A stretch of 20,763 nucleotides of DNA from Candidatus Nealsonbacteria bacterium (GTDB lineage: Bacteria; Patescibacteriota; Minisyncoccia; Minisyncoccales; MHMH01). Each line of letters begins with the position of its first letter. Within the stretch, counting starts at the first letter, position 1. Both the position numbers and the translations under genes were made by a program. Location: assembly GCA_016186525.1 (NCBI GenBank), contig JACPLM010000028.1, positions 1 to 20,763 on the forward strand. The letters are read 5' to 3'. Under the pieces are notes generated by a model. That model had not been told where the DNA came from. It worked only from the letters and a program-made list of their open reading frames with translations, and searched no databases. Shown piece after piece: positions 5,304 to 19,069 of the stretch.

Positions 5304-5453
5304 ATGCCGCTCATTACTCTGAATCAAGAGAATAATTGGGCTTATATTTTGATCATTGCCACTTGGGCGTTAATAGCCGGCGCATTTGTTGTCTATTATG
5401 CGATTGATACGACCAATGAAATAAATTCTTTAAATCAGAATATTTCATATTAG
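5304..5453 (+). CDS. possible small single-pass membrane protein (49 aa)
   Basis: The ATG directly abuts the TAA of the upstream gene (TAAATG). It translates to MPLITLNQENNWAYILIIATWALIAGAFVVYYAIDTTNEINSLNQNISY, with one clear TM helix. It falls below the ORF-track size cutoff. Confidence 0.4.
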   Translation: MPLITLNQENNWAYILIIATWALIAGAFVVYYAIDTTNEINSLNQNISY

Positions 5454-5466
5454 GCCTGTGGATAAC
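5454..5466 (+). promoter_or_regulatory. DnaA-box-like motif inside 13-nt repeat GCCTGTGGATAAC (copy 1)
   Basis: TGTGGATAA (5457..5465) is the exact reverse complement of the consensus DnaA box TTATCCACA. The 13-mer is identical at 19021..19033. It lies 1 nt after a stop codon and 29 nt upstream of a TTGACG -35 element. Confidence 0.4.
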
Positions 5467-5494
5467 TGCCAATTTTTATTCTATTTTTCATTAC

Positions 5495-5522
5495 TTGACG
5501 AAGTTTCCCGCTGGATTAAAAT
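5495..5522 (+). promoter_or_regulatory. sigma70-type promoter for the candidate structured RNA
   Basis: TTGACG (5495..5500), 16-nt spacer, TAAAAT (5517..5522). No ORF follows it. Confidence 0.45.
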
Positions 5523-5528
5523 AGAAAT

Positions 5529-5773
5529 TGGGTGTGTCTATGCACCATGGCAGAAGGGAGTGAGTGTCGCAGTACGACAGAGATCTCTCATTTCATTTTT
5601 CCTCCTTTAGCATATACCCCGAAACAATCAAAGGGTTTCCCTGAGCTTGTTGAGGAGTTGGCGATAGGATTAAAACTCCAAGCTTGGTAGAAAAACGAAA
5701 TGGGCTCAAATGCATAAGTACCTTACGACATTCATTTCCTTCTGCCCTGCCCCGCAAGGGGCTTTTTGTTTTT
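5529..5773 (+). ncRNA. candidate structured small RNA (~245 nt), family not identified
   Basis: Promoter upstream. A 21-bp long-range closing helix pairs 5549..5569 (GGCAGAAGGGAGUGAGUGUCG) with 5726..5746 (CGACAUUCAUUUCCUUCUGCC): 18 Watson-Crick pairs plus 3 G-U. There are internal hairpins, e.g. 5642..5649/5679..5686 plus 5655..5659/5674..5678. It ends in an intrinsic terminator. No credible ORF. Confidence 0.45.
5749..5773 (+). terminator. rho-independent terminator
   Basis: GCCCC-GCAA-GGGGC (5-bp GC stem, GNRA loop) followed by TTTTTGTTTTT. Confidence 0.65.
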
Positions 5774-5777
5774 AGTG

Positions 5778-5786
5778 TGCTATAAT
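5778..5786 (+). promoter_or_regulatory. extended -10 element TGCTATAAT
   Basis: TGn plus perfect TATAAT, 7 nt upstream of the 5793 hairpin. There is no good -35, so it may be fortuitous. Confidence 0.25.
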
Positions 5787-5792
5787 AAAATT

Positions 5793-5856
5793 GGTGGGGG
5801 AAAAGGCGATGCTTTAAATCCTATCGCCGCCTAGTCCCTCGCCATTTATTTTTTTT
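5793..5856 (+). terminator. two-tier hairpin plus U8 tract (second terminator or very short RNA)
   Basis: GGUGGGGGA (5793..5801) pairs with UCCCUCGCC (5835..5843), including 2 G-U pairs. The inner stem pairs GGCGAU (5805..5810) with AUCGCC (5823..5828). It is followed by ATTTATTTTTTTT. Confidence 0.4.
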
Positions 5857-5974
5857 CTGACCCATTGAGGTCTTTTTTTGTGAATAATATGTGTACAATT
5901 TCGGCAGTTCTCGAACAAATTGAGGACAAATCGCAGATTGACCCTCCTGCTTCATTCCTGTATATTTAAAGTAG

Positions 5975-6020
5975 AAAGGGCATTATAAAAGCGATAGGAA
6001 TTGCTTTTGTGATGCCCTTT
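5975..6020 (+). other. imperfect long hairpin upstream of the 6028 ORF
   Basis: AAAGGGCAU (5975..5983) pairs with AUGCCCUUU (6012..6020). The inner stem is AAAAGC/GCUUUU, and the apical loop GAUAGGAAUU carries repeat copy 3. It is followed by a U-rich stretch and then ATG 6028. Confidence 0.5.
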
Positions 6021-6027
6021 TACTTTT

Positions 6028-6306
6028 ATGAAGCGTTCTAAAAAGAAAAAAACCAATTTTGGAGATATACAGGAAAAAGCCCTAAACTGGATTTGGGTGG
6101 TTTTGCTTATCAGCGGAATTATGTTTTTAAAAGGTCTTTTAAGCGATATGAATACGCAAACCAACCGGCTTTCCGAAGAAAGAAAATTATTTCAAAAAGA
6201 ATTAAATGAAGAAAGAACGCAGAGCAGGGCCCTCTACGATGAGTTTTATGCGGAATTGAACAAAACCATAAAAAAAGCAATAGAAACTATTAATGGCGAG
6301 GGATAG
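6028..6306 (+). CDS. small membrane-anchored coiled-coil protein, hypothetical
   Basis: 92 aa. Basic N-terminus (MKRSKKKK), one TM helix (ALNWIWVVLLISGIMFL), then a charged helical tail. Preferred over the antisense ORF 5952..6164. Confidence 0.55.
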   Translation: MKRSKKKKTNFGDIQEKALNWIWVVLLISGIMFLKGLLSDMNTQTNRLSEERKLFQKELNEERTQSRALYDEFYAELNKTIKKAIETINGEG

Positions 6307-19020: not shown

Positions 19021-19033
19021 GCCTGTGGATAAC
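19021..19033 (+). promoter_or_regulatory. DnaA-box-like motif inside 13-nt repeat GCCTGTGGATAAC (copy 2)
   Basis: Identical to 5454..5466. TGTGGATAA lies at 19024..19032, 7 nt upstream of the lexA-fusion -35 element. Confidence 0.4.
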
Positions 19034-19039
19034 CTCCCG

Positions 19040-19069
19040 TTGACACCCGACTGAACGGTCGGGTATAAT
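19040..19069 (+). promoter_or_regulatory. consensus sigma70-type promoter of the LexA-methyltransferase gene
   Basis: TTGACA (19040..19045), 18-nt spacer, TATAAT (19064..19069). A second TATAAT at 19072..19077 abuts ATG 19078. No SD, so the mRNA is leaderless or nearly so. Confidence 0.6.
19045..19064. promoter_or_regulatory. perfect 7-bp inverted repeat in the promoter spacer (candidate operator)
   Basis: ACCCGAC-TGAACG-GTCGGGT fills the -35/-10 spacer. It could be a LexA autoregulatory site, or a weak hairpin terminating copA. Confidence 0.4.

Follow-up and report, generated by a model that had tools for sequence, protein, structure and literature searches.

Among the closest described systems to the locus presented here are decoy RNAs. 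EutX/Rli55, found in Enterococcus and Listeria, copies the antiterminator-binding hairpins of eut leaders, and the chb mRNA traps ChiX. Another RNA of comparable outline is 6S RNA. Barrick et al. reportedly noted in 2005 that the known 6S RNAs conserve shape rather than sequence. Bacteria of the candidate phyla radiation (CPR) have genomes of about 0.6 Mb with very few regulators, and we know of almost nothing on RNA-based regulation in this group. In the literature, no paper tying 6S RNA or catalogued small RNAs to the group was found. The window, i.e., the whole 20,763-nucleotide (nt) contig JACPLM010000028.1 (C13), is part of a 569-kb assembly (G000) of 64 contigs that is 86% complete. The relatives matched by an exact-word scan of public genomes are titled ‘Candidatus Nealsonbacteria bacterium’, and the host is therefore an ultra-small Parcubacteria/CPR bacterium. 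At positions 5529-5773, a preliminary description of the window had proposed a structured RNA. From its sequence features, this segment was assigned as an independent gene for a stable, rod-shaped non-coding RNA, named sRNA1, with a core of approximately 200 nt and a predicted transcript of approximately 220-245 nt.

The sRNA1 gene is considered real because eleven homologues keep its promoter, have no conserved reading frame in common, and carry compensatory changes that back the rod. The homologues (alignment A4) are closely related sequences from all four genomes of the genus and from seven metagenome contigs. The promoter, first noted as TTGACG-N16-TAAAAT, was located at 5495-5500 and 5517-5522 with 10/12 consensus matches, and the 11 homologous loci keep TTGAC-N16/17-TAAAAT. 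By consensus scan, the suspected terminator with a GC stem and a GNRA loop was recovered as GCCCC-GCAA-GGGGC at 5749-5762, followed by UUUUUGUUUU. In four loci (L162, L163, L164, and L169) a U-run stands directly 3' of P1, the closing helix of the rod, which suggests that the whole rod doubles as a terminator hairpin. No credible open reading frame (ORF) had been seen in the segment, and none was found among the homologues; they are 159-209 nt long and differ in length by numbers that three does not divide, and every frame is closed in at least one of the 11.

A segment without an RNA function, i.e., a chance structure, a decayed coding sequence, or an element acting as DNA, such as a replication origin or what is left of a plasmid or phage, is hardly credible here. 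Three DnaA-type boxes within approximately 450 base pairs (bp), and an intergenic region that is long for so compact a genome, could be taken in that sense. However, a coding or decayed gene was rejected by the lack of a conserved frame and by insertions and deletions that are not multiples of three, and the compensatory changes and the conserved promoter and terminator also speak for an RNA. A replication origin was rejected as well. GC skew and gene orientation show no switch at the locus, the boxes are unclustered, and dnaA lies elsewhere, i.e., on another contig in the relative G002. Plasmids, phages, and viral contigs gave no match to the segment.

The predicted fold consists of P1 (22-25 bp), P2 (4 bp), an internal loop of 11 + 13 nt, P3 (approximately 17 bp), and an apical domain. 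The 21 consecutive pairs first noticed between 5549-5569 and 5726-5746 are present, and their only non-Watson-Crick pairs are three G-U. In the repeat search, the arms of this helix reached 24 nt (5546-5569 with 5726-5749). RNAfold gave -88.9 kcal/mol for 5529-5773 versus -64.7 +/- 5.1 kcal/mol for shuffled sequences (z = -4.8; 0/200 shuffles equal), and P1 appears in both the minimum free energy (MFE) and the centroid structures. Folds of homologues reached z = -7.1 and -6.7. The opposite strand of the segment folds nearly equally (z = -4.6). The RNA was assigned to the + strand because of the promoter, the terminator, the G-U pairs, and the model scores, i.e., 230 bits on the + strand versus 44 bits on the - strand.

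The smaller elements described before were also located. A stem-loop shows GGCGAUAGGAUUA at 5660-5672 in the apical loop of the MFE fold. The two 10-nt palindromes, AGAGATCTCT at 5579-5588 and CCAAGCTTGG at 5678-5687, each occur only twice as 10-mers in the 569-kb assembly. On the 5' side of the internal loop, AGAGAU(C/A)UCU is kept in 11/11 sequences, and the variants GGAGAUCUCC (L169) and GAGAUAUCUC (L172) remain palindromic. The segment CCAAGCUUGG is invariant in 10/11 sequences, and the version of L164, CCAGGCUUGG, still pairs as RNA. At the position of the short hairpin before the rod (5531-5546), most homologues have a hairpin of other sequence, and L163 and L164 have none.

In the first alignment, the promoter is conserved and the helix strands are invariant, whereas the apex varies. 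In A4, 94% of cells are paired, 11 pairs have double changes (matched by 2/500 shuffles), and the covariation score is 0.140 versus 0.03-0.07 for partners slid by 1-3 columns; A4 was fitted to the structure model, so these figures favour the structure, and the kinship of the 11 sequences makes the statistics modest. Compensatory changes were found in the closing helix in its outer pairs only, with G-C to A-U changes at the base. P2 has one G-C to A-U double change, two one-sided changes, and 100% of cells paired. In P3, the compensatory changes are C-G to U-A (L163) and C-G to A-U (L162), and a U.G to C-G change was seen in L169.

The preliminary description had also raised two mutually exclusive folds. 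The local alternative pairing does exist in the sequence, i.e., UGUCG/CGACA (5565-5569 with 5575-5579) and GGAGUGAG/CUCAUUUC (5557-5564 with 5587-5594), and so do the near-duplicate segments CUCAUUUC and UUCAUUUC on which it was based. A bistable switch would let the 5' strand of P1 alternate between its 3' strand in the rod and the nearby CUCAUUUC in a local hairpin, with differing activities. The local hairpin is the MFE structure of the isolated 5' part, and pairing with two partners would help account for the invariance of four strands. However, its energy is -12.5 kcal/mol versus about -71 kcal/mol for the rod core, and comparison does not favour it. The UGUCG/CGACA pairing is broken in L019, L023, and L172. 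In L162, L163, and L169, the second-helix substitutions keep or improve pairing with the rod partner, which compensates for them, whereas they mismatch the alternative partner and weaken or break the pairing there. Two relevant folds thus have no comparative support, and a bistable switch is considered very unlikely. A transient local hairpin may form during transcription, but the comparison does not support one.

The 15 central pairs of P1, with their three G-U, and most of P3 are unchanged in the 11 sequences, whereas the apex differs by 50 nt. The invariance of the P1 and P3 strands points to selection on strand sequence, not on pairing alone. As far as the sequences tell, the invariance of the P1 strands is accounted for by none of the models considered, and it is unlike 6S RNA. 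In L169 and L172, the most divergent of the 11, other sequences stand on the 3' side of the internal loop, i.e., CCCAAGCGUUAGCAU and CCCUAAGGGUAAAAU, respectively. One pair of metagenome loci is worth recording separately. The RNAs of L155:1947-2146 and L156:1947-2146 are identical save for three uncompensated substitutions in the P1 5' strand of L155 (GGCCGAAAGGGG), which are either an assembly error or a natural helix-breaking variant.

The distribution of sRNA1 is narrow. BLAST of the stretch found it in 3/3 other genomes of the genus and in 0/57 genomes of other genera except for short chance matches. Covariance models built from 4 and then 11 sequences found it in 4/4 genomes of the genus and in 0/15 genomes of ten other genera of the family. 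Over 150 genomes of the order, the model gave nothing convincing; the best matches (E = 0.01) were short A/U-rich hairpins. An 18-mer scan of the genome collection returned three known Nealsonbacteria genomes and chance matches only. With the neighbouring gene ORF92 as a handle, approximately 20 homologues of that gene were found in public assemblies, and every contig extending far enough upstream of it carried sRNA1 with 108-200 bits. Among the genomes searched, sRNA1 thus appears confined to one small Nealsonbacteria clade, i.e., one genus. In a metagenome scan with a 16-mer of the 3' loop, one weak model match was seen among the matches listed (L075:340-486, minus strand, 17.4 bits, E = 0.026, GC 0.51), which is probably chance.

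sRNA1 is the first of several elements placed in a fixed order. In 9/11 loci this order is DnaA box, sRNA1 promoter, sRNA1, terminator, extended -10 element, RNA2, tandem sites, TTGACC promoter, leader hairpin, and ORF92. RNA2 is assigned from its sequence and conservation as a separate small RNA gene. Its predicted fold has -30.9 kcal/mol (z = -3.9), and it matched no Rfam family. In the alignment of ten RNA2 sequences, AAAUCCUAUCGCCGCC is nearly invariant, with a single change to U, in L164, and covariation is seen in the outer stem. RNA2 also occurs in the sister genus g4. ORF92 is preceded by a leader hairpin that is kept in 9/9 module loci and in genus g4, and that looks like a terminator or attenuator. 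The apex of the hairpin carries GCGAUAGG, and the hairpin ends 6 nt before the ORF92 start codon; the start has no Shine-Dalgarno sequence. The ORF92 protein is 72% identical to its homologue in G002, and its profile matches were sub-threshold only (FtsL, YhaL).

The apical domain of sRNA1 repeats parts of this leader. Its segments S1 and S2 repeat the leader 5' arm (AGAGCAUCG) and the leader apex (GCGAUAG) in the same order and sense. S1 resembles the 5' arm and has its complement in AUGCUCUA/AUGCUCAA of the RNA2 loop, at 8/8 positions in L020, L156, L163, and L169. One S1 position is U-A, A-U, or G.U with RNA2 in 7/8 loci. S2 has the same sense as the leader apex and is 15/16 complementary to RNA2 at 5813-5828, i.e., to the loop and 3' arm UUUAAAUCCUAUCGCC, which is the complement of S2. 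The 9-mer GCGATAGGA has three occurrences in the 569-kb assembly and all of them are here, in the sRNA1 apex (5661), the RNA2 complement (5820-5828), and the leader apex (5991).

The fate of these segments follows that of RNA2. S2 is intact in 9/9 loci with RNA2 and degenerate in 2/2 without it. ORF92 is present in G000 and G002 and absent from G001 and G003, which also lack RNA2 beside sRNA1. In the sRNA1 of the latter two genomes, the apex is approximately 24 nt shorter, S2 is decayed (GCAAUUAGGA, GCUAAAUAGGA), S1 and S2 form a plain Watson-Crick helix, and the rod is unaltered. From these sequences, the sRNA1 apex appears to track RNA2, whereas the rod does not. The sister genus g4 has a 49-amino-acid (aa) ORF, RNA2, the promoter, the leader (apex GGCGAUAGGAUG), and an ORF92 homologue at 43-44% identity. 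At the position of sRNA1, the syntenic site in g4 has approximately 50 nt, and the model finds no sRNA1 there even with filters off. Because g4 has RNA2, leader, and ORF92 without sRNA1, sRNA1 looks like a genus-level addition to an older unit of these three.

It is reasonable to consider sRNA1, tentatively and at somewhat less than even confidence, as a decoy or sponge for RNA2 that mimics the ORF92 leader and is carried on a rod with a second function. RNA2, or a protein reading the shared GCGAUAGG hairpin, would act on the nascent ORF92 leader, and this action would decide whether the terminator- or attenuator-like hairpin forms. sRNA1 would present a copy of the leader 5' half, compete for RNA2 or the protein factor, and thereby set ORF92 expression. 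The invariant rod would be the second functional part, likeliest a protein-binding or stabilising scaffold. DnaA would modulate the transcription of both sRNA1 and ORF92. The sequence relations and their conservation are as given above; the binding events and their direction are what they suggest.

Several results weigh against the decoy. In RNAcofold, neither sRNA1-RNA2 nor leader-RNA2 gained energy over the separate, very stable hairpins, and the best duplex sites had z of only -1 to -3, often on the P1 strand instead of the apex. The complementary pairs are ordered first-with-first and second-with-second, which makes one continuous duplex impossible, and the linker in L164 is only 3 nt. S2 is largely paired with S1 in most folds (at most 22% of the motif is unpaired in 9/11), and the motif in the leader sits within a stem with a 4-nt loop. 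The correlation between RNA2 presence and S2 integrity is a single evolutionary event, G001 and G003 being close kin. The covariation between S1 and RNA2 has the present window as its exception and, by a hand count not corrected for kinship, reaches about p = 0.1, which is not significant. The decoy model also leaves the invariant P1 and P3 strands unaccounted for, which are kept even without RNA2 and ORF92.

These strands could instead make the rod the working part. sRNA1 would then be a trans-acting or protein-sequestering RNA, i.e., a dock for a double-stranded RNA-binding protein, a substrate of RNase III, or a source of strands pairing with ribosome-binding sites, and the apical likeness would be secondary. 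The constancy of the P1 and P3 strands, with their three G-U, in 11 sequences with varying loops and apex points to sequence-specific recognition, and the rod persists without RNA2. P3 and P1 also hold runs like anti-Shine-Dalgarno and anti-start sequences, and 5593-5608 is a perfect 16-nt complement of a AAGGAGGAAAAAUGAA site on contig C34. However, this match needs CCUCC, which is specific to this genome, and the short-BLAST target search returned ordinary matches resembling ribosome-binding sites and dependent on non-conserved bases. The conserved strands are moreover locked in very stable helices, and no protein partner is consistently encoded next to sRNA1. A rod acting in this way is therefore regarded as somewhat unlikely.

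The preliminary description had found the size and the rod-like stem compatible with a 6S-like RNA or another regulatory RNA. The rod-like outline stood, but 6S membership did not: the Rfam 6S model has no match, P1 is perfect and invariant, conservation of the 3' side of the loop fails in the two homologues that diverge most, and the RNA occurs in one genus. A functional analogue of 6S RNA is a separate matter. Here, the rod would mimic an open promoter and sequester a sigma-70-type holoenzyme, and it would be released by a product RNA made from the 5' side of the loop. The core of approximately 200 nt, the paired ends, the closing stem, the 11/13-nt loop, the inner stem, and the apical part would suit this role, and sRNA1 has its own strong promoter. 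The Rfam 6S model (RF00013) has no match in G000 or 5 relatives, which leaves the role unfilled, and in the two genomes where RNA2 and ORF92 were lost the rod was retained, implying a function of its own. On the other hand, no 6S match appeared even at E <= 10 on 5350-6050 or at E <= 1 on 8 homologues. P1 is a bulge-free, sequence-invariant helix of 21-25 bp, and L169 and L172 have another sequence on the loop 3' side. The RNA was found in one genus only (0/15 genomes from 10 sister genera, no convincing match in 150 genomes of the order), and the syntenic site of genus g4 has no room for it. A 6S analogue is therefore considered unlikely.

Other catalogued families were searched by an Rfam covariance scan, and none fitted sRNA1. 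In the window and 8 homologous loci, there was no match at the gathering score or by E-value, in agreement with the preliminary description, which had seen no signature motifs of RNase P, tmRNA, signal recognition particle (SRP) RNA, cobalamin, or T-box elements. Rfam 15 by E-value on 5350-6050 likewise returned nothing relevant. The real RNase P RNA was found at C33:366-765 and the real tmRNA on another contig, which shows that the Rfam models work on this lineage. A riboswitch or cis-acting leader was rejected because sRNA1 has its own terminator, a conserved separate promoter follows it, and its downstream neighbour differs between loci. A retron was considered on account of the long terminal inverted repeat; no reverse-transcriptase domain was found among the Pfam-identified neighbours in four loci, and the surroundings vary.

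SRP RNA is rod-like and of similar size, and it was examined on the side of its protein partners also. The models RF00169 and RF01854 do not match sRNA1, the domain IV motifs are absent, and Ffh and FtsY are absent from the genome. No SRP_SPB/SRP54 domain, M domain, or true SRP-type GTPase was found in G000 or in 121 genomes of the order, and the near-universal DTAGR motif occurs in no frame of G000. The SRP models also detected no SRP RNA elsewhere in G000. Loss of the signal recognition particle in Parcubacteria has been published (Nelson and Stegen 2015, PMC4508563). With no Ffh or FtsY, no model match, and this published loss, SRP RNA is excluded for sRNA1. The present search confirms the loss on a much larger genome sample, i.e., the 121 genomes of the order.

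A DnaA box was recognized upstream of the sRNA1 promoter. In 11/11 loci, the sequence TGTGGATAA, which exactly complements the DnaA-box consensus TTATCCACA, precedes the -35 element by 8-29 nt, and its flanking bases vary. By a pattern search for box plus promoter, 15 of the 19 family genomes were matched, and 14 share one orthologous promoter with a perfect DnaA box, a double -35 TTGACAGGGGTTTGACC, and TAAAAT (loci L181-L200; in G000 C45:2781-2847 = L198). In G000 this promoter precedes the gene of a protein with an ATP-cone and a ribonucleotide reductase domain, and it precedes the gene of the same protein in genus g4. The reductase gene behind the box-promoter was confirmed in G000 and G006; the other genomes are counted by promoter match only. 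Ribonucleotide reductase is a classical DnaA-controlled gene in Escherichia coli. The box-promoter of the reductase gene suggests that these reduced genomes have a DnaA regulon. Behind the remaining DnaA-box promoters in the family lie protein genes and no rod RNAs. Upstream of rpoB in this genome, no rod RNA was found either.

The dnaA gene was found in 5/5 relatives tested and is absent only from this incomplete assembly; in G002 it lies on a separate contig. We infer that the box upstream of sRNA1 is a genuine DnaA-type operator, because it is conserved in 11/11 loci, the same box stands at the reductase promoter, and relatives have dnaA. sRNA1 would then be in the same DnaA regulon as the ribonucleotide reductase gene, with DnaA, the initiator of replication, probably tuning the output of the sRNA1 promoter. 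The regions beside dnaA in G002 and G006 showed no cluster of boxes, so the box assignment rests on the consensus match and the reductase promoter. In the whole assembly, relaxed DnaA boxes number 19 versus 17 expected and are unclustered. Of the two tandem sites between RNA2 and ORF92, the first has 1 mismatch to the DnaA box, and pairs like TGTGNATAA-NN-TGTGCATAA are found in 9/9 loci having RNA2. The second perfect DnaA box of the window lies at 19024-19032 on the same strand, just upstream of an ORF starting at 19069.

Joined with the decoy, these boxes would give a previously undescribed three-RNA circuit flanked by DnaA boxes. A DnaA-switched rod decoy would titrate RNA2, which would control the terminator before a small membrane protein, possibly division-related, and the rod would be a new protein-binding RNA module. 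The full circuit is doubtful on present sequence comparisons. If it is true, an ultra-small symbiotic bacterium would have its envelope or division functions tied to chromosome replication. The features of the locus are collected in Table 1.

Table 1. Elements of the sRNA1-RNA2-ORF92 locus, numbered along the window
Feature	Position	Strand	Remarks
Perfect DnaA box, TTATCCACA on minus / TGTGGATAA read on +	5457..5465	-	29 nt upstream of the sRNA1 -35
sRNA1 promoter TTGACG, 16 nt, TAAAAT	5495..5522	+	TTGAC and TAAAAT invariant in 11/11 loci
Variable 5' hairpin GGGUG...CACC before the rod	5531..5546	+	Predicted fold
P1 5' strand, core CAGAAGGGAGUGAGUGUCG	5546..5569	+	15 central pairs including three G-U invariant in 11 sequences
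P2 5' strand GUAC	5572..5575	+	Partner 5717-5720
Internal loop 5' side GACAGAGAUCU	5576..5586	+	Unpaired in folds; overlaps palindrome AGAGATCTCT (5579-5588)
P3 5' strand CUCAUUUCAUUUUUCCUCC	5587..5605	+	Partner 5686-5704; seventeen pairs, 97% of cells paired
S1 segment UUUAGCAU	5606..5613	+	UAGAGCAU or UUGAGCAU in most homologues
Variable apical hairpins	5614..5659	+	Shortened or absent in L019, L023, L163, L164, L172
S2 segment GGCGAUAGGAUUAAAA	5660..5675	+	Inverted-repeat search
CCAAGCUUGG segment	5678..5687	+	CCA-AGCU-UGG mini-hairpin in 6/11 homologue folds; here partly taken by P3/P4
P3 3' strand GGUAGAAAAACGAAAUGGG	5686..5704	+	
Internal loop 3' side CUCAAAUGCAUAA	5705..5716	+	Invariant in 9 sequences
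P2 3' strand GUAC	5717..5720	+	
P1 3' strand, core CGACAUUCAUUUCCUUCUG	5726..5749	+	
Intrinsic terminator GCCCC-GCAA-GGGGC and U-run	5749..5773	+	Consensus scan
RNA2 extended -10 promoter TGCTATAAT	5778..5786	+	TGnTATAAT type kept in 9/9 RNA2 loci
RNA2, ~60-nt two-tier hairpin GGUGGGGGA...UCCCUCGCC around GGCGAU...AUCGCC, then U-runs	5793..5879	+	
Two tandem DnaA-box-like sites TGTGAATAA-TA-TGTGTACAA (read on +)	5879..5898	-	Between RNA2 and the ORF92 promoter
ORF92 promoter TTGACC, 17 nt, TATATT	5938..5966	+	TTGACC in most loci
ORF92 leader hairpin, 20 pairs, apex GCGAUAGGAAUUGC, then U-run	5974..6021	+	Consensus scan and inverted repeat
ORF92, 92 aa, one transmembrane helix and coiled coil	6028..6306	+	No known family

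The genes around sRNA1 (5529-5773) in the window are all on the + strand. Upstream are the gene of a 616-aa DUF5667 protein and then that of a 49-aa membrane peptide. On the 3' side, ORF92 is followed by a CtpA-type S41 protease, ribosomal protein L9, and CTP synthase. The ORF of the membrane peptide (5304-5453) lies directly 3' of the DUF5667 gene and has the same neighbours in the sister genus g4 (L175, L176); it is probably a real small protein. The gene surroundings of sRNA1 vary among genomes. The next element downstream is RNA2/ORF92 in 9 loci, ctpA in G003, and small ORFs without known identity in G001. Across the loci examined, no protein partner consistently encoded beside sRNA1 was found. 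In one metagenome contig, the gene of an RNA-binding protein with an RRM domain (L171:292-621) lies immediately 5' of the ORF92 homologue, and its product is a possible partner for the shared hairpin motif.

The existence of this locus has a meaning for regulation in reduced genomes. Approximately 570 bp of a compact genome are given to three nested non-coding units, three promoters, and three DnaA-type sites, which implies an important control point. The new elements are the fixed module, the DnaA-type operator, the narrow range of genomes with sRNA1, and the results that speak against its membership in 6S RNA. If the decoy model is true, the locus would be a compact, testable case of one small RNA controlling another, with a tie to the replication initiator. 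Should the 6S reading be true, sRNA1 would be the first 6S-type RNA of the group. Either way, the sRNA1 family could enter RNA databases and improve the annotation of Nealsonbacteria, where this region is now blank.

Compared with known systems, sRNA1 shares features with several and coincides with none of them. SRP RNA is similar in shape and size, but sRNA1 has no domain IV motifs and its host has no Ffh or FtsY. With 6S RNA (SsrS; RF00013) it shares the size class, the paired ends, the layout of stem, loop, stem, and apex, and a stand-alone gene with a housekeeping-type promoter. However, the sRNA1 helix is perfect and invariant, not bulged and variable, and no covariance model matches. Its loop is small for the range, with 11 and 13 nt, and is not conserved on the 3' side. 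Unlike 6S RNA, sRNA1 is also limited to one genus and has an apical module complementary to the neighbouring RNA2.

The plasmid countertranscript systems, i.e., pT181 RNAI/II, pIP501 RNAIII, and R1 CopA/CopT, are similar in that a short stable hairpin RNA, here RNA2, is complementary to the 5' half of a terminator-capable leader. However, RNA2 lies upstream on the same strand and is not antisense, and its complementary segments are permuted. The sRNA1 locus is also chromosomal, the regulated gene is not a replication gene, and there is no plasmid similarity. In EutX/Rli55 and the chb trap, the likeness lies in the decoy itself. The stand-alone sRNA1 repeats leader elements from the same locus and could compete for the factor of that leader. 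The competing factor here would be RNA2 or a protein, no ANTAR-type or other regulator gene is linked, and the mimicry covers only approximately 25 of the 200 nt of sRNA1.

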